NCBI RefSeq assembly: GCF_054482595.1
Contig: NZ_CM137008.1
Length of the DNA stretch: 64,000 nt
Direction: 5' to 3' (one strand)
Part shown: positions 3,081 through 57,518 of the stretch, piece after piece
How positions within the stretch are numbered: position 1 is the stretch's first letter
Layout of the letters: each line of letters starts with the position of its first letter
Translations under genes and position numbers: made by a program
Notes under the pieces: generated by a model
The model's input: only the letters and a program-made list of their open reading frames with translations
The model's database searches: none
What the model was told of the DNA's origin: nothing

Positions 3081-3803
3081 TCACTTATTCTGCGTGTGCA
3101 GCATATAGTTCACATCCACGCCGGGGCCGAGTTTAAAAGTATTAGTGATCGGGTTGTAATGTAGCCCGGTTATATGTCGCTCTTTAAGGCTTGTCTGATC
3201 TACCCAGCCAAGCAGCTCTGCCGGTTTAATAAACTTCTTCACATCATGCGTGCCTTTGGGCACCATGCGCAAAATATATTCCGCGCCAACCACCGCCATC
3301 AGCCATGACTTGCCGTTGCGGTTAAGCGTCGAGAAAAAGACATCGCCGCCCGGTTTCACCAGTTGCGCACAGGCTCTGACCACTGACTGCGGATCAGGGA
3401 CGTGCTCCAGCATCTCCATGCAGGTCACCACATCATACTGCCCGGCATGTTTTGCCGCGTGCTCTTCCACGGTTTCCTGCACGTAATCCACCTGAATGCC
3501 GCTTTCCAGCGCGTGCAGCTTTGCCACCTGCAATGGCTCAAAGCCCATATCCAGACCGGTCACCGTCGCGCCTTCGCGCGCCATACTCTCGGCCAGAATG
3601 CCGCCGCCACAACCGACATCGAGCACCTTTTTGCCAAATAAACCGCCAGCACGCTCGGCAATATAGCCCAGACGCAGCGGGTTAATGCGGTGCAGCGGTT
3701 TGAACTCACCTTCCAGATCCCACCAGCGGGAGGCGACGGCTTCAAATTTAGCGATCTCTTCGTGGTCTACGTTATGGTTTACCGGCGATTTTTCGGCATT
3801 CAT
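3081..3803 (-). CDS. ubiG: Ubiquinone biosynthesis O-methyltransferase UbiG (240 aa from MNAEKSP)
   Basis: Translation matches UbiG, SAM-binding VLDVGCGGG motif; ORF-track N-terminal extension trimmed to MNAEK start. Confidence 0.93.
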
Positions 3804-16277: not shown

Positions 16278-19212
<2,935 letters not shown>

Positions 19213-22863: not shown

Positions 22864-22957
22864 AAAAAAAAACCGGATGCGAGGCATCCGGTTGAAATAG
22901 GGGTAAACAGACATTCAGAAATGAATGACGGTAATAAATAAAGTTAATGATGATAGC
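22864..22957 (-). ncRNA. micF: micF antisense sRNA (represses ompF)
   Basis: Minus-strand sequence GCTATCATCATTAACTTTATTTATTACCGTCATTCATTTCTGAATGTCTGTTTACCCCTATTTCAACCGGATGCCTCGCATCCGGTTTTTTTT, divergent from ompC. Confidence 0.9.
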
Positions 22958-23276
22958 GGGAGTTATTCTAGTTGCGAGTGAAGGTTTTGTTTTGACATTC
23001 AGTGCTGTCAAATACTTAAGAATAAGTTATTGATTTTAACCTTGAATTATCATTGCTTGATGTTAGGTGCTTATTTCGCCATTCCGCAATAATCTTAAAA
23101 AGTTCCCTTGCATTTACATTTTGAAACATCTATAGCGACAAATGAAACATCTTAAAAGTTTTAGTATCATATTCGTGTTGGATTATTCTGCATTTTTGGG
23201 GAGAATGGACTTGCCGACTGATTAATGAGGGTTAATCAGTATGCAGTGGCATAAAAAAGCAAATAAAGGCATATAA

Positions 23277-24530: not shown

Positions 24531-25586
24531 ATGGAAATAAGCTTTACCCGCGTGGCACTGCTGGCTGCCGCGCTCTTCTTTGTTGGTTGCGATCAAAAAC
24601 CACAACCCGCCAAAACCCACGCTACTGAAGTTACCGTTCTTGAAGGCAAAACCATGGGTACCTTCTGGCGTGCCAGCATCCCGGGCATTGACGCCAAACG
24701 CAGCGCCGAACTTAAAGAAAAGATTCAGACCCAGCTGGACGCCGACGATCAGCTGCTTTCGACCTATAAAAAAGATTCTGCGCTGATGCGCTTTAACGAC
24801 TCGCAAAGTTTGTCGCCGTGGCCGGTAAGTGAAGCGATGGCCGATATCGTCACCACCTCGCTGCGCATTGGCGCAAGGACCGATGGTGCGATGGATATAA
24901 CCGTCGGGCCGCTGGTGAATCTGTGGGGCTTTGGCCCGGAACAACAGCCGGTTCAAATTCCGAGCCAGGAACAGATCGATGCGATGAAAGCCAAAACCGG
25001 CTTACTGCACCTGACGGTCATTAATCAGTCGCATCAGCAATATCTGCAAAAAGACCTGCCGGATTTATATGTCGATCTCTCCACCGTCGGTGAAGGTTAT
25101 GCGGCGGATCACCTGGCACGCTTGATGGAGCAGGAAGGGATTTCCCGCTATCTGGTGTCGGTGGGCGGCGCGCTGAACAGCCGTGGTATGAACGGTGAAG
25201 GCCAGCCGTGGCGGGTAGCGATTCAAAAACCAACCGATAAAGAAAATGCGGTTCAGGCCGTGGTGGATATCAACGGTCATGGCATTAGCACCTCTGGCAG
25301 CTACCGTAACTATTACGAACTGGACGGCAAACGCCTTTCCCATGTTATCGATCCGCAAACCGGGCGTCCCATCGAACACAATCTGGTATCCGTGACGGTG
25401 ATTGCTCCGACGGCGCTGGAAGCCGATGCCTGGGATACTGGCTTGATGGTACTCGGGCCGGAGAAAGCCAAAGAGGTTGTTCGCCGGGAAGGGCTGGCGG
25501 TTTATATGATCACCAAAGAAGGCGATAGCTTTAAAACCTGGATGTCACCACAGTTTAAAAGCTTCCTTGTCAGCGAAAAAAATTAA
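24531..25586 (+). CDS. apbE: FAD:protein FMN transferase ApbE (lipoprotein)
   Basis: 351 aa; lipobox LLAAALFFVGC; ApbE family; synteny. Confidence 0.93.
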   Translation: MEISFTRVALLAAALFFVGCDQKPQPAKTHATEVTVLEGKTMGTFWRASIPGIDAKRSAELKEKIQTQLDADDQLLSTYKKDSALMRFNDSQSLSPWPVSEAMADIVTTSLRIGARTDGAMDITVGPLVNLWGFGPEQQPVQIPSQEQIDAMKAKTGLLHLTVINQSHQQYLQKDLPDLYVDLSTVGEGYAADHLARLMEQEGISRYLVSVGGALNSRGMNGEGQPWRVAIQKPTDKENAVQAVVDINGHGISTSGSYRNYYELDGKRLSHVIDPQTGRPIEHNLVSVTVIAPTALEADAWDTGLMVLGPEKAKEVVRREGLAVYMITKEGDSFKTWMSPQFKSFLVSEKN

Positions 25587-30957: not shown

Positions 30958-31330
30958 TGATGTGCCACATCCGGCATGGTATGCCGGATGTGGCGTATGC
31001 TGATAAGACGCGCCAGCGTCGCATCAGGCAACCGGCTTGGGTGTTAGATGTCGGATGCGGCGTAACCGACTTATTCGACCTACGGAGTGGAGCACTTCAC
31101 AGCGGTGTAGGCCTGATAAGACGCGTCAGCGTCGCATCAGGCAACCGGCTCGGACGTTGGATGTCGGATGCGGCGTAACCGCCTTATCCGACCTATGGGG
31201 TGGAGCACTTCACAGCGGTGTAGGCCTGATAAGACGCGCCAGCGTCGCATCAGGCAACCGGCTCGGGCGTTAGATGTCGGATGCGGTGTAACCGCCTTAT
31301 CCAACCTATGGGGTGCCGCACTTCACGGCA
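30958..31330. repeat. BIME cluster: about three tandem ~125-bp units of REP palindromes
   Basis: Repeated TGATAAGACGCGCCAGCGTCGCATCAGGCAACCGGCT...GATGTCGGATGCGGCGTAACCGCCTTATCCGACCTA units read directly. Confidence 0.85.
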
Positions 31331-50728: not shown

Positions 50729-51913
50729 TTAACTGGCTTTAATTTCTCCATGTGGTACGACAACCCAATCAATATGGTTTTGCGTATAAATCTTGGTTGA
50801 CTTGGAGTCGCTGTGCGCCATTCGTGCTTGCGGATCGATACCTTGCTGATCGAAAAGATACGCTGCTAATGCTCTAATTTCGTGAAAGGTTGGTCTTTCA
50901 TCTATCGGTAGATTGTCGCATAAACCTAGCTTGTCACGTGTGGCTGAAAACGACCGGCTCAAATAGTCCGGTGCAACTTGAGTAGGGTGTGAAACCTCTT
51001 TGCTGCGTTTAACCTGCCGTTCAGGGATCCTGTGAACGACAAACGGACTGGCCACATTATCTCGGCTATCATCAATTATTCGTTTCAACTCTTCACCAAT
51101 CGGTATTGCAACGTGTGATGCCTCTTTTTTTTGCACTTTTTGCCTGTGGATGTAAAGCGTCCCATATATGCCATTTTGTGGTTGTTCGAACCAGACACAT
51201 CCACATATACCGTCTTTAGGTTCGCGAATTGAGTAACGGATTCGCGATACTTCGAGTCGTGCATGTGTAGTCTGCAATGCTAGGTCCATTGCTGTTCTTA
51301 ACCATGGTGCAGCGGCCTGCCTGATAGCTATAAAATGCTCGAGTGACAGGCGCCGTCTTTTCTTCTCATCAGTCCTACGCATTTTTTTTCTGATGGCCGG
51401 GTTATCCAGCATTAGTGATTCATCGACCGCATAAGAGAACAACTTTTTAAGGAAGCTGACCTTTCTGTTCTGCACATTTGCGGATGCGCAGGCATGATAT
51501 TTATTGATGTAGGTATTAACGTGTTCAAGTGCAATATCGCATGCTGGAACATTTACGAAAAACGCTTTTACGCGTAGAGCGTCATTTTTCCAGTCATCTA
51601 AGGTGCTCTGGGAAGGACGTTCGTCTTCGATAATCCGGGTCATTATGTGATCAACATGTTCAGCAAATGGTTTTGCTTCTCCGATAACACCGCCAGATTC
51701 TCTAATAAGATTATCTACTGATGGAGATAATTCTGGTCGCATCCTCAGGTTGTACTCTCTGGCGATTGCAATGGCTATTGCCCTATCCTTACCTATATTT
51801 TTCTTCTTTCCGGTAATAAGTGTGAATTTATAAACACCTCGATCTTTATCAAAAATCAGATAATCAGGAAGATGTCTGTATTCTTTTTTACGTGGCCTTG
51901 CCGCCATGGTCAC
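50729..51913 (-). CDS. int: Phage integrase, tyrosine recombinase
   Basis: 394 aa; C-terminal catalytic region with HEIRALAAYL (HxxR) and STKIYTQ (Tyr); overlaps xis. Confidence 0.92.
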   Translation of the reverse strand: MTMAARPRKKEYRHLPDYLIFDKDRGVYKFTLITGKKKNIGKDRAIAIAIAREYNLRMRPELSPSVDNLIRESGGVIGEAKPFAEHVDHIMTRIIEDERPSQSTLDDWKNDALRVKAFFVNVPACDIALEHVNTYINKYHACASANVQNRKVSFLKKLFSYAVDESLMLDNPAIRKKMRRTDEKKRRRLSLEHFIAIRQAAAPWLRTAMDLALQTTHARLEVSRIRYSIREPKDGICGCVWFEQPQNGIYGTLYIHRQKVQKKEASHVAIPIGEELKRIIDDSRDNVASPFVVHRIPERQVKRSKEVSHPTQVAPDYLSRSFSATRDKLGLCDNLPIDERPTFHEIRALAAYLFDQQGIDPQARMAHSDSKSTKIYTQNHIDWVVVPHGEIKAS

Positions 51914-52396: not shown

Positions 52397-52920
52397 TTTT
52401 TATTCTCCGGTGCTTTCGGCATTACTGCCCAGTGGGTAATATTGACGTTTTCAAGGTCCCCGACCTGAAATGTCCACTGCCATTCTCCGGTTTCTTTTTG
52501 CCCCCAATGTGTACCAGAGAGAACGCCAGCCAATCAGCCAGCCTTCTCCATTAGCATCAAATAACAGAACACTTTCATGTCTGTTTTGTAAAAAGGACGG
52601 TACCAGCCGGAAGCAAGGGTACAAGCTGGTACCTCCAAGACTACACACAGCATAAAGTTGTGGTGCCGGGTGCCTCCCGGTGCCTGGCGAAGGTTGCACA
52701 CCAGGCGGGTGGGTATCCACAGAAGGTCGACTGTCAGCCTCAACCTTTACCCGCGTGCGCTGAGCCGCATTCACCACAACGCTAAGGATTCTCTCTGGTT
52801 GAAAATACTTAGCTGTTATGTGCCTGCTTTTAGCCACATCAGGCGAGGTGGACCTAGTTATTCCCCAACAACAAGGATTTGGTTATTATGTAACCCTCCC
52901 CAACAACGATAAGGATTTAT

Positions 52921-53010
52921 ATGGAACGATGTGTAGATAAGTATGAGGAGAGGCATGTGCCGTTAAGGCAAAAGCCTCCAGTTCCTCCAAAACCACCCAA
53001 GGAAAACTGA
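52921..53010 (+). CDS. Putative 29-aa proline-rich leader peptide (MERCVDKYEERHVPLRQKPPVPPKPPKEN)
   Basis: AGGA RBS 5 nt upstream of ATG; stop 7 nt before the 164-aa ORF start; see findings. Confidence 0.35.
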   Translation: MERCVDKYEERHVPLRQKPPVPPKPPKEN

Positions 53011-53017
53011 GACTAAT

Positions 53018-53512
53018 ATGACCAGAGACGATTATAAATTTTATATTCACTACTCTTATGTATTGGAGAAGATGAATTACACGTTGTTAACTCGTATTGA
53101 TAAATTAATAACGTTGATGTTAATCGTTCTCGGTTTTTCAGTTTTCGCCCCGTACAGTAATTTATTTATTTTCGGTTTGTTTGTTGCCGTACTTTCGGTT
53201 CTTCAGTTGGTCTATCAGTTCGGCCAGGAGGCTGGGATGTCTAAAGAACAAGCGAGGCATTACAAAAGACTGCTGATTGAGTCTGATACTCTTTCTGAAG
53301 ATCAGTTGCAAGCTAGGTATTTAAAAATCCAAGATACCGATAGTAATCCATGGAAATCACTTGAACGAGCGGCTTTCATTCGGGCCTGCATTTTTGCTGG
53401 TGTTCCAACTAAGTACGATCTAACAACCAAAGAAAAATTTATTGCTTGGTGTGCGGGAGATCTACCTCTAGAGAATGAACTAACGGATATTAATGATGAC
53501 CAACAAGCATAA
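53018..53512 (+). CDS. Small membrane protein with two N-terminal TM helices; SieB-like position (superinfection exclusion candidate)
   Basis: 164 aa, AT-rich, hydrophobic segments LITLMLIVLGFSVFAPY and LFIFGLFVAVLSVLQLVY; sits between early-left region and cI on opposite strand. Confidence 0.65.
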   Translation: MTRDDYKFYIHYSYVLEKMNYTLLTRIDKLITLMLIVLGFSVFAPYSNLFIFGLFVAVLSVLQLVYQFGQEAGMSKEQARHYKRLLIESDTLSEDQLQARYLKIQDTDSNPWKSLERAAFIRACIFAGVPTKYDLTTKEKFIAWCAGDLPLENELTDINDDQQA

Positions 53513-53567
53513 TCCAGTTCACGGACATGTACCTCCGAAGCCGAAACCACCGAAACCGAAGAAATGA
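53496..53567 (+). CDS. Putative 23-aa proline-rich micro-ORF (MTNKHNPVHGHVPPKPKPPKPKK)
   Basis: ATG overlapping the 3' end of the 164-aa ORF; see findings. Confidence 0.3.
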   Translation: MTNKHNPVHGHVPPKPKPPKPKK

Positions 53568-53586
53568 GACATAATAGGATTGGATA

Positions 53587-53655
53587 ATGAGTCGACCAAT
53601 AGAGCCTTTTCATATTCCACCTCGTCCCAGGCCACCAGATCCAGGCCCAAAGTGA
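53587..53655 (+). CDS. Putative 22-aa proline-rich micro-ORF (MSRPIEPFHIPPRPRPPDPGPK)
   Basis: AGGA RBS 7 nt upstream; followed by terminator hairpin. Confidence 0.3.
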   Translation: MSRPIEPFHIPPRPRPPDPGPK

Positions 53656-53703: not shown

Positions 53704-53817
53704 TTGCTAACGAATCATCTTGGACTTCATATGCCCCAGGCGGCTACTTCGTGAGCGTCCTGCCTGTTTGTTGTTTCTCTTGGGTACATTATGTATCTCA
53801 AAGGTACATTGTCAAGC

Positions 53818-53842
53818 ATAAAAAAACCTGCCGAAGCAGGTT
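53818..53842 (-). terminator. Rho-independent terminator downstream of cI
   Basis: Minus strand AACCTGC-TTCG-GCAGGTT followed by U-run. Confidence 0.65.
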
Positions 53843-53854
53843 CATAAACATTGA

Positions 53855-54529
53855 TTAGGCTTTGATTTTGTATCTTCTTGGTTTTCCTGAGAAAATCACA
53901 GTACCAATTATAGAGCAATTACCGTTGATCTTAATGTAAGGCTCAGGCCAGTTTGGGTTTAACGCTTTGAGATAACGCTGTGTCCCATCTTCTATCAACC
54001 TTTTGAAGGTGGTTTCACCTGTATCGTGCATCAATGCAATAACGTCGTCACCGTGGCAGGCAGGTACTTCAGGATCGACAAAAATCATGTCTCCCGGGCG
54101 GTACTCATCAATCATTGAATCACCTATCACCCGCAAGATATAAGTCATTTCCCCACAGGGTACAGGGCAGGGATACGTTTCTGCTGTGCTCAAATCAACC
54201 TCAGAATATCCAACTTCTTTCCATGCTCCGGCCTGTACCCATGATATGACAGGGACTAATGTGATTTGTTTATTAGTGATTGAAACATCAGGTTTTTTTG
54301 TGATGTTCGTTGTCTGGTGTTCTTGATCGAGCCATCCGACAGGCAGGTCGAAACATTTTTCGATGTGTCGTGCCATGCTGTCACCGATATTTTTAGTAGC
54401 ACCATCTCCCATAAACCTGCTGGTTTGGGTTGGCTCGCGATCAATCATAGTGGCAAAGGAAGAATTCCCGCCAACACCATCTCTCAGTTTTCTGGCGTTA
54501 GACCGCCGGATGTCATGGATTGTTTTCAT
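53855..54529 (-). CDS. Phage repressor CI-like (HTH plus S24 LexA-type autopeptidase domain)
   Basis: 224 aa; C-terminal ...VIGDSMIDEYRPGDMIFVDPE... S24 Ser/Lys peptidase signature; divergent from cro-like gene. Confidence 0.88.
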   Translation of the reverse strand: MKTIHDIRRSNARKLRDGVGGNSSFATMIDREPTQTSRFMGDGATKNIGDSMARHIEKCFDLPVGWLDQEHQTTNITKKPDVSITNKQITLVPVISWVQAGAWKEVGYSEVDLSTAETYPCPVPCGEMTYILRVIGDSMIDEYRPGDMIFVDPEVPACHGDDVIALMHDTGETTFKRLIEDGTQRYLKALNPNWPEPYIKINGNCSIIGTVIFSGKPRRYKIKA

Positions 54530-54544
54530 AACGAAATTAAAACC

Positions 54545-54565
54545 CTTGTACCGTTAAGGTACAAG
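54545..54565. promoter_or_regulatory. Operator-like perfect palindrome CTTGTACC-GTTAA-GGTACAAG in cI/cro intergenic
   Basis: Read directly; GGTAC(A) half-sites recur near 54607, 53776, 53800 and 52617. Confidence 0.6.
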
Positions 54566-54569
54566 TATC

Positions 54570-54597
54570 TTGAAGGTTCATTTTAATCATGTAATAT
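54570..54597 (+). promoter_or_regulatory. Candidate pR-like sigma70 promoter (TTGAAG-N16-TAATAT) for cro-like gene
   Basis: -35/-10 hexamers adjacent to operator palindrome, GGAGG RBS downstream. Confidence 0.5.
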
Positions 54598-54619
54598 GTA
54601 TACCGGAGGTACATATTGT

Positions 54620-54820
54620 ATGAAAGCGTATTGGGACTCTTTAACCAAAGAACAGCAGGGCGAGTTGGCCGGAAAAGTTGGCTCAACACCTGGCTACTTA
54701 CGGCTGGTTTTCAATGGCTATAAAAAAGCCAGTTTTGTGCTGGCTAAAAAACTTGAGCAATGCACGTCAGGTGCAATTACGAAATCTGACTTAAGACCGG
54801 ATATCTATCCGAAAGATTAG
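54620..54820 (+). CDS. Cro/YdaS-like small HTH regulator
   Basis: 66 aa from MKAYWDSL; position and size; ORF-track start 54596 lies upstream of predicted -10. Confidence 0.75.
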   Translation: MKAYWDSLTKEQQGELAGKVGSTPGYLRLVFNGYKKASFVLAKKLEQCTSGAITKSDLRPDIYPKD

Positions 54821-54851: not shown

Positions 54852-55415
54852 ATGAGGCTAATCGTGGGTAAGCATCACTGGAAAATAGAAAAACAGCCTG
54901 AGTGGTACATGAAAGCTGTCAGAAAAACTATCGCGGCGTTGCCGGGTGGTTACGCTGAAGCCGCTGACTGGCTGGATGTAACAGAGAACGCATTATTTAA
55001 CCGCCTTCGTGCCGATGGCGATCAGATTTTCCCGCTGGGATGGGCAATGATTTTGCAACGTGCTGGTGGAACTCACTTCATTGCTGATGCTGTGGCGCAG
55101 TCTGCAAATGGCGTCTTTGTGTCTCTTCCTGACGTCGAGGATGTGGACAACGCCGATATTAACCAGCGTCTGCTGGAAGTCATTGAACAGATTGGCAGTT
55201 ATTCAAAACAGATTCGTTCAGCAATCGAAGACGGTGTAGTGGAACCGCATGAGAAGACAGCAATTAATGACGAGCTGTACCTCTCAATTTCGAAGCTGCA
55301 GGAGCATGCAGCACTGGTCTACAAAATTTTTTGCATTTCAGAAAGTAATGACGCCCGCGAGTGTGCAGCTCCGGGCGCCGTGGCGTGTCGTGACTGTGGA
55401 GAAACTAACGCATGA
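54852..55415 (+). CDS. Hypothetical early protein in CII/YdaT position (possibly CP76-type CII-like regulator)
   Basis: 187 aa ORF directly after cro-like gene; family assignment tentative. Confidence 0.6.
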
Positions 55416-56701: not shown

Positions 56702-57192
56702 TCATGAGTCTTTTGAATGACGTTCAGAAATTCATTGAAGCCCATCCGGGGTGTACTTCCGGAGACATTGCGGATGCTTTTGCTGGTTACTCACGGCAGC
56801 GCGTTCTGCAGTCAGCAAGCAAGTTACGTCAGAGTGGGCGTGTGGCTCACCGTTGTGAAGGGGATACACGCAGACATTTCCCGCGCCTGACTGAGAGAGC
56901 GCAGGAACTGGAACCACAACCAGTTCGAGAAACCAGATCTGTGCGCAATTTCTATGTCGGCACTAACGATCCCCGGGTGATTTTGTGCCTGACCCGCCAG
57001 GCTGAAAAACTGGAGTCCAGGGGCTTATACCGTCGTGCTGCAACGGTGTGGATGGCGGCATTCCGTGAAAGCCACTCCCAGCCAGAACGAAACAATTTTC
57101 TGGCGCGTCGTGAGCAGTGTTTACGGAAAAGCAGCAAGCGCGCTGTATCGAGTGATGAGTGGTATCTGTCAGGGAATTACGTGGGGGCGTAA
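56698..57192 (+). CDS. Hypothetical phage protein (tentative PerC/ANR-like C-terminal motif)
   Basis: 164 aa ORF coupled to neighbours; motif LESRGLYRRAATVWMAAF; no Walker motif so not a DnaC-type loader. Confidence 0.55.
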   Translation: MIMSLLNDVQKFIEAHPGCTSGDIADAFAGYSRQRVLQSASKLRQSGRVAHRCEGDTRRHFPRLTERAQELEPQPVRETRSVRNFYVGTNDPRVILCLTRQAEKLESRGLYRRAATVWMAAFRESHSQPERNNFLARREQCLRKSSKRAVSSDEWYLSGNYVGA

Positions 57193-57518
57193 TGACGACG
57201 TTAACTCAATGCCAGCAGCAGGTGCTGGATATGCTGATTTCTTATCAGAAAGAGCGTGGCTTTCCGCCAACCAATCAGGAGGTGGCAACCATGCTGGGAT
57301 ACCGTTCAGTGAATGCAGCGGTAGAGCATCTTCGCGCACTGGAGAAAAAAGGCGTCATCACGATAAAGCGTGGCGTGGCCCGGGGGATAACGCTTCATAC
57401 CGCGGTGAAGGACGACGACAGCGAGGCGGTCGGGATTATCCGCGCACTGCTTGCCGGTGAGGAAAACGCAAGGCTGCGTGCAACCCACTGGTTACATGAG
57501 AGGGGCCTGAAAGTATGA
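57192..57518 (+). CDS. LexA N-terminal DNA-binding domain protein (no peptidase domain)
   Basis: QQQVLDMLISYQKERGFPPTNQEVATMLGYRSVNAAVEHLRALEKKGVI parallels LexA N-terminal winged helix (QQEVFDLI...GMPPTRAEIA...[21 protein letters not shown]). Confidence 0.75.
   Translation: MTTLTQCQQQVLDMLISYQKERGFPPTNQEVATMLGYRSVNAAVEHLRALEKKGVITIKRGVARGITLHTAVKDDDSEAVGIIRALLAGEENARLRATHWLHERGLKV

Follow-up and report, generated by a model that had tools for sequence, protein, structure and literature searches.

Candidate operators of an e14/SfV-type immunity switch flanking the cI-like repressor gene of an Escherichia coli prophage

A perfect palindrome in the control region between a cI-like and a cro-like gene raises the question of whether it belongs to a set of operators through which the prophage repressor acts and which define the immunity specificity of the phage. 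We analysed this locus in 64,000 nt of DNA (contig NZ_CM137008.1 of assembly GCF_054482595.1; this whole stretch is hereafter the window). A sequence-only reading had described the palindrome and an adjacent promoter, and had proposed that GGTACA-type half-sites recurring to the left of cI and within a structured region complete the operator set of the CI-like repressor. This proposal stood for the sites on either side of cI, the OR and OL regions, on the combined grounds of gene context, statistics and a motif matrix, and fell for the structured region. We consider it likely that the sites are the operators of an e14/SfV-type immunity switch, bound by a YmfK/CohE-type repressor.

The palindrome is part of the early genes and control sites of a lambdoid prophage, outside of which the window is E. 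coli chromosome, micF included; the coordinates of all features are collected in Table 1. In the ORF list, cI and cro are divergent with a 90-bp spacer between them, so that a repressor with a helix-turn-helix and a LexA-like S24 domain faces cro across a short control region, as in a lambdoid switch. We compared the region with 17 related loci whose cI N-terminal domains are 60-99% identical, giving 18 sequences with the window. Over cI, the identity was 100% for SfIV, 99.6% for SfV, 80% for Hafnia phage yong2 and 74% for Edwardsiella phage EPP-1. A scan of reference genomes with the cI N-terminal domain yielded 15 further prophage loci (60-99% identity), in hosts that include Atlantibacter, Enterobacter, Klebsiella, Pseudocitrobacter, Pantoea, Phytobacter, Trabulsiella, Limnobaculum, Rahnella, Serratia, Edwardsiella and Proteus.

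Table 1 Features of the prophage early region and its control sites (positions in the window).
Feature	Position	Strand	Sequence or elements	Remarks
Early region of lambdoid prophage	50.7-58 kb			From ORFs, Pfam and PHROG
Integrase gene	50729-51913	minus		Excisionase-like gene also present
STnc100/PasD-family prophage sRNA, predicted	52587-52810	minus		Rfam RF02076; outside the operator set
OL2	53771-53789		TTGTTTC-TCTTG-GGTACAT	Two core mismatches; matrix 16.4
PL, leftward early promoter	53788-53815	minus	TTGACA (53815-53810), 16 nt, CATAAT (53793-53788)	
OL1	53791-53809		ATGTATC-TCAAA-GGTACAT	One core mismatch; matrix 25.8, best in window
Intrinsic terminator after cI	53824-53843	minus		Terminator scan; annotated in SfV and Ayreon records
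cI-like repressor gene, 224 aa	53855-54529	minus		N-terminal helix-turn-helix and S24 peptidase domain
PRM candidate, low confidence	54529-54564	minus	TTGTAC (54564-54559), 17 nt, TTTAAT (54541-54536), 6 nt, ATG	
ORa	54546-54564		TTGTACC-GTTAA-GGTACAA	Perfect dyad, zero core mismatches; matrix 22.3
ORm, tentative and weak	54563-54581		AAGTATC-TTGAA-GGTTCAT	Spans PR -35; matrix 12.6
PR candidate	54571-54598	plus	TTGAAG (54571-54576), N16, TAATAT (54593-54598)	
ORb	54596-54614		ATGTATA-CCGGA-GGTACAT	Two core mismatches; matrix 20.6
cro-like gene, 66 aa, YdaS/HTH type	54620-54820	plus		Counterpart of e14 ymfT (croE)
CII-like gene	54852-55415			Replication genes then follow

The palindrome, CTTGTACC-GTTAA-GGTACAAG, is a perfect 8-5-8 repeat at 54545-54565 inside the cI/cro spacer, and both it and the neighbouring TTGAAG-N16-TAATAT were present as described earlier. 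Read as 19-bp units of the form (A/T)TGTAyC-N5-GGTACA(A/T), the operators comprise four clear copies (ORa, ORb, OL1 and OL2) and one weak copy (ORm). ORa, within the palindrome, is separated by 16 nt from the start codon of cI and shares bases with the -35 of the candidate PRM. ORb takes in the final 3 nt of the PR -10 together with the predicted start and the Shine-Dalgarno sequence of cro, GGAGG (54605-54609). Relative to the predicted PR start (about 54605), the centres of ORb, ORm and ORa fall at about +1, -33 and -50; relative to the cI start codon, they fall at about -76, -43 and -26. The right half of ORm, GGTTCAT, was kept in 16 of the 18 loci and reads GGTACAT in Proteus, and its left half was AAGTACC in 7 loci of the alignment. 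Since the spacer of ORm is the -35 hexamer of PR, conservation of that spacer is not diagnostic. ORa and ORm share 2 bp, with centres 17 bp apart, an overlap that would be unusual for two dimers bound simultaneously.

The candidate PR shares 8 of 12 positions with the sigma-70 consensus, a weak match that falls below the threshold of the promoter scan. All 17 related loci preserve its position and spacing. A TTGnnG-N16-(TAATAT or CATAAT) sequence occupied this fixed position in 17/18 loci, the Pantoea locus having TTTACG. The candidate PR would drive cro and the CII-like gene. The candidate cI promoter on the opposite strand is a low-confidence assignment that would yield a leaderless cI mRNA. 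Its distance from ORa to the TnnAAT block was fixed in the 18 loci, with indels only between that block and the ATG, and its -10 lacks conservation of the key A at the second position. Another cI promoter, to the right of ORa (TAAAAT, 54580-54585, minus strand), was rejected because it was not conserved in relatives.

Downstream of PR, the product of the CII-like gene matched both Pfam Phage_CP76 (CII, 1.8e-13) and the PHROG category "CII-like transcriptional activator"; the SfIV genome paper describes SfII, SfV and SfIV as lacking CII. Given this match, a CII-dependent leftward cI promoter may exist within or beyond cro. Further on, 3' of the replication genes, 57159-57518 encodes a 119-aa protein with a LexA DNA-binding domain alone (3.7e-19) and no peptidase domain, which could be a decoy or an extra SOS-tied regulator.

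On the other side of cI, the related copies expected in a putative OL region proved to be OL1 and OL2. These coincide with a strong promoter that points leftward and lies immediately beyond the terminator of cI, a true OL/PL arrangement. PL had 11 of 12 consensus matches in the promoter scan and was invariant in the OL alignment, and the record of phage Ayreon annotates a promoter on the same strand at the homologous place. OL1 fills the spacer between the PL -35 and -10; its half-sites were kept while 16 different spacers occurred among the 18 loci. OL2 runs from within the PL -10 across the predicted start of that promoter. Its right half-site was kept in 17/18 loci, and its left half is weak, resembling yGTwyC in most loci and lost in several. 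Dyad sites thus overlap -35 or -10 elements of both the rightward and the leftward early promoter, as expected of a lambdoid switch.

The half-sites themselves had been reported with small errors of position. The GGTACA copies are real, at 54608, 53783 and 53803 rather than at 54607, 53776 and 53800, and the copy in the structured region is at 52618, in a hairpin that spans 52599-52633 and not 52609-52643, so that the coordinates were 1-7 bases off for the former. Could such a recurrence near cI be an effect of chance or composition? The hexamer is indeed over-represented generally, with 37 copies in the window vs 19.3 expected, and two copies within cI coincide with the conserved protein motifs PVP and SWVQA; the bare GGTACA hexamer is therefore uninformative as evidence of a site. 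Composition does not, however, explain the paired 7-5-7 arrangement. TGTACC-N5-GGTACA with at most 2 mismatches matched 6 times in the window vs 1.31 expected, no shuffle in 100 reached 6 core matches, and 4 of the 6 fell in the two intergenic regions flanking cI, where they are ORa, ORb, OL1 and OL2. As the OR and OL sites are also islands of conservation within diverged spacers, we regard an origin by chance or composition as extremely improbable.

A motif search with a matrix trained on 41 unique ORa, ORb and OL1 sites from relatives, with the window and a near-identical relative excluded, led to the same sites. The five highest scores in the 64 kb belonged to OL1, ORa, ORb, OL2 and ORm, in this order (Table 1), and the next match scored 7.2; simulated random windows of matched composition gave 0.46 matches at scores of at least 10. 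Because OL2 and ORm were outside the training set, their rank is independent support for both. The match scoring 7.2, at 54148-54164 inside cI with 2 mismatches, was not counted and is read as a coding constraint on Pro-Val-Pro. A further look-alike, ATGTGCC-GTTAA-GGCAAAA at 52955-52973, has the central CCGTTAAGG and the 7-5-7 layout in common with ORa, and its core carries mirror-image changes relative to ORa, A to G in one half and T to C in the other. It was set aside as an operator because its matrix score was only 1.2, and it may be a relic, a site of another specificity or a product of chance.

Comparison of the 18 sequences, Escherichia and Hafnia included, showed which parts of the sites are kept. 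The half-sites were near-invariant, carrying 1.1-1.9 bits per position, while the 5-bp spacers varied freely (0.01-0.33 bits at the five positions): the central bases of ORa, GTTAA in the window, include GCGTT, AAATT, TTGTT, TCAAA, CTTGC and AGCGT among relatives. No indels occurred between conserved blocks in the alignments, and the sites stood out from the otherwise diverged intergenic spacers. The outer bases of ORa were T...A vs A...T in OL1 and ORb in nearly all loci. Conservation of the sites in phages with homologous repressors, on which the earlier proposal depended, was therefore observed. As close relatives share sites by descent, conservation alone cannot separate operator from promoter where the two overlap, which is the case for the ORm spacer (the -35), the ORb spacer (which holds the Shine-Dalgarno sequence) and the PL -10, which lies between OL1 and OL2.

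More distant repressors set a boundary to this conservation. Among relatives whose N-terminal identity is 29-48% and whose recognition helices differ, none of six loci had such a site, the best score being 2.2. These relatives show other dyads, such as TACC-N5-GGTAA in L021 (38% identity to the window). The half-sites are thus kept at 60-99% identity and absent at 29-48%, which indicates that the sites travel with the DNA-binding domain of the repressor. Such co-conservation is what sites of immunity specificity should display, and it suggests that the earlier assignment of this role to the half-sites is correct.

The alignments also bear on whether the palindrome acts as RNA, forming a minus-strand hairpin or intrinsic terminator just upstream of cI. 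A terminator scan did list it, with an 8-bp stem, a 5-nt loop and then GGTTTTAATT. Among the 18 sequences, however, none of the 8 stem pairs had changed on both sides, four core pairs never varied, and the second-outermost pair was broken in 12/18; the T-run that would form the U-run of the RNA was not conserved in relatives, and the imperfect dyads of ORb, OL1 and OL2 would make poor hairpins. With no covariation, a broken pair and no conserved U-run, the palindrome is conserved in sequence and not in pairing. We therefore rejected the terminator, a very improbable reading, and retained an operator as the likely function of the palindrome.

The structured region called for separate treatment, since it had been proposed as a further location of operator copies. 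The hairpin at 52599-52633, GGTACCAGC...GCTGGTACC, does contain GGTACC and GGTACA motifs, and its loop holds GGTACAAG, the same as the right half of ORa, so a remote additional operator of the same repressor might be imagined there. But the half-site has no partner at 5-bp spacing: no 7-5-7 site exists within 52590-52650, where the best 19-bp score was -9.4, and a single GGTACA is expected by chance given the copies elsewhere in the window. The hairpin instead aligns, on the minus strand, to the terminal stem of the STnc100 model, followed by a U-run, and is best described as terminating an STnc100-like sRNA. mEp460_4F5 carries this block too, with a repressor that resembles cI in the C-terminal domain alone. 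Taken together, these points make an operator in the hairpin a highly improbable addition to the OR and OL sites.

The sRNA match to RF02076 covered the whole model (1-206 of 206) at an E value of 2e-7, with 39.9 bits vs a gathering score of 47 and hence below the Rfam cut-off for membership; a chance resemblance to STnc100 nevertheless seems unlikely. STnc100 is described as a family of prophage-borne sRNAs related to PasD. The sRNA block is also found, unannotated, in phage SfV at 24744-25016.

The repressor itself is well supported by its C-terminal half, where Pfam detected Peptidase_S24 at 1.5e-26, and PHROG assigned the protein to "transcriptional repressor". In the N-terminal domain, no helix-turn-helix was detected with Pfam (HTH_3), and a model built from a 20-sequence alignment (mean pLDDT 73.5) gave a four-helix HTH fold. 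The best match of this model was the Rep protein of Salmonella phage SPC32H, followed by C (controller) proteins, 434, P22 c2 and lambda cI. Ala100-Gly101, Ser138 and Lys176 were invariant in the alignment; we take the first to be a LexA-type cleavage site and the latter two to be the catalytic pair of the S24 family. Given these autocleavage motifs, DNA damage should lift repression. YmfK, the e14 counterpart, is catalogued as an SOS-sensitive repressor, and in K-12, 12 of 23 e14 genes have been described as one co-regulated set that is on under oxidative stress (peroxide) or upon loss of Fur.

On these grounds we propose the following scheme for the switch. The cI-like repressor most likely binds the 19-bp dyad as a dimer via its XRE-type helix-turn-helix domain. 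Dimers at ORb, over the PR -10 and start, would shut off cro and the rightward early genes, and repressor at OL1 and OL2, whose centres are 20 bp apart and hence on the same face of the helix, would block PL and shut off the leftward early operon. ORa and the weak ORm would set the balance between cI and cro. As ORa lies over the candidate cI promoter, its occupancy by either cI or Cro would lower cI expression, and it probably acts by cI auto-repression, by Cro shutting off cI, or by both. In the accessible literature we found no binding, footprint or transcript-start data for these sites.

In another reading, the operators are real and ORa is mainly a target of Cro (YmfT), which would shut off cI first, as at lambda OR3. 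ORa does occupy an OR3-like position, its centre lying near -26 relative to the cI start codon and near -50 relative to PR, its outer T...A bases set it apart from OL1 and ORb, and CroE is catalogued with the croE operon as its target. Yet in known lambdoid switches cI and Cro both bind all operators, and a preference of Cro for ORa would refine the repressor-operator scheme rather than replace it. We judge such a mainly Cro-directed ORa to be unlikely.

The position of ORa permits a further, doubtful suggestion, namely that the logic of this switch is unlike that of lambda, since the one perfect operator, presumably also the tightest, covers the candidate promoter of cI itself beside a leaderless cI start. 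PR would then depend on one imperfect site at a distance of 50 bp from ORa, and strong negative autoregulation, or looping between OR and the two OL sites, would maintain the lysogen in place of cooperative OR1-OR2 binding coupled to positive autoregulation. We found no published measurement of the switch logic of e14 or SfV.

Placed beside known systems, the locus has its closest counterparts in e14 and the Shigella phages SfV and SfIV. E. coli K-12 e14 carries the same element (ymfK/cohE-ymfT/croE), 99% identical over 941 bp that include every site, and the switch region was 98.5% identical in SfIV and 94.8% in SfV. ORb differs from its counterpart in e14 and SfIV by one base (TATACC vs TACACC). 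The near-identical repressor, Cro and control region place the prophage in the e14/SfV immunity group. It is nonetheless distinct from e14, being located near micF/ompC and not icd, with another integrase and a different insert between PL and xis. The chromosomal position is also indicated by micF and three REP-derived naRNA4 copies in the window (22865-22958; 19127-19203; 31110-31306), which put the prophage near ompC and therefore not at the icd site of e14.

Mehta, Casjens and Krishnaswamy reportedly identified the binding sites of the e14 repressor and Cro in 2004 by comparison with SfV. An ungapped alignment showed that the "putative operator region" of the SfV record U82619.2 (26377-26445) equals window positions 54546-54614, so that its ends coincide exactly with the outermost bases of ORa on the left and of ORb on the right. 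The equivalent segment was present in 1323 of 5426 complete E. coli genomes, with the matching genes named ymfK and ymfT in RefSeq. The immunity region is therefore already known: it is annotated, very common and ordinary. What we add is an explicit 7-5-7 definition of the sites, a second site at OL and perhaps a third at OR, together with the cross-genus footprint and the lambda-like placement of the sites.

The likeness to lambda consists in the divergent cI and cro, the related dyads over PR and PL, the LexA-like self-cleaving repressor, and the order of ORb, ORm and ORa, which take roughly the places of OR1, OR2 and OR3. In contrast, the sites here are 19 bp long with a 7-5-7 layout and a GTAC core and bear no likeness to the 17-bp lambda operators; OR has two clear sites 50 bp apart and a doubtful third, OL has two sites, the perfect dyad is at the OR3-like place, and an N gene has not been reported for SfV and SfIV. 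For 434, P22 c2 and other XRE-family repressors, the cI N-terminal model gave TM scores of 0.42-0.55 at an identity of only 13-18%; recognition by a dimer of a dyad with unconserved central bases would be the shared feature, while operator sequence and length differ here. The closest solved DNA-binding domain is that of SPC32H Rep (PDB 5D50; 35-38% identity, TM 0.65, E 8e-5), which has a different C-terminal domain, whereas cI here has a lambda-like S24 autocleavage domain. For SPC32H Rep, tetrameric binding and removal through an antirepressor have been reported.

As operators, the sites would define the immunity group common to e14, SfV, SfIV, the cdtI phage and a set of Stx2c phages, which predicts mutual exclusion among these phages and the switching on of prophage genes after DNA damage; among the e14 genes so predicted is ymfM, a division inhibitor. 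Both the 19-bp consensus and the matrix could serve to annotate this type of immunity in other Enterobacterales. Beyond correct annotation, the significance is small.

Two neighbouring regions to the left of PL deserve mention in their own right. Directly downstream of the promoter, 53713-53775 (minus strand) is a conserved leader block of about 60 nt, which contains a hairpin of 5 bp whose 12-nt loop, GGCRUAUGAAKA, is conserved. Compensatory changes affected 4 of its 5 pairs among 10 loci, the stem variants being CCGGU/ACCGG, CCCCA/UGGGG, CCCGG/CCGGG and UCCGG/CCGGA. A search of the block against Rfam gave no match, and an HK022 put-type antiterminator was rejected because the block has no sequence similarity to the HK022 PL-nun region (putL). 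According to the SfIV paper, SfV, SfIV and SfII lack N, so that the hairpin could be a cis-acting antitermination or processing element. The block is also present in K-12 e14, upstream of ymfJ. In Hafnia phage yong2, a tRNA-Gly(CCC) at 3367-3440, between PL and the first leftward gene, occupies its place.

Farther left, a putative membrane protein of 164 aa (53018-53512; PHROG 6315, unknown function) is flanked by three tiny plus-strand ORFs at 52921-53010, 53493-53567 and 53587-53655. Searches of this cassette with PADLOC and Pfam gave no matches, and it forms an insert between PL and the sRNA. The tiny ORFs encode 29, 24 and 22 aa, and each ends in a proline-rich run (KPPVPPKPPKEN; VPPKPKPPKPKK; IPPRPRPPDPGPK).
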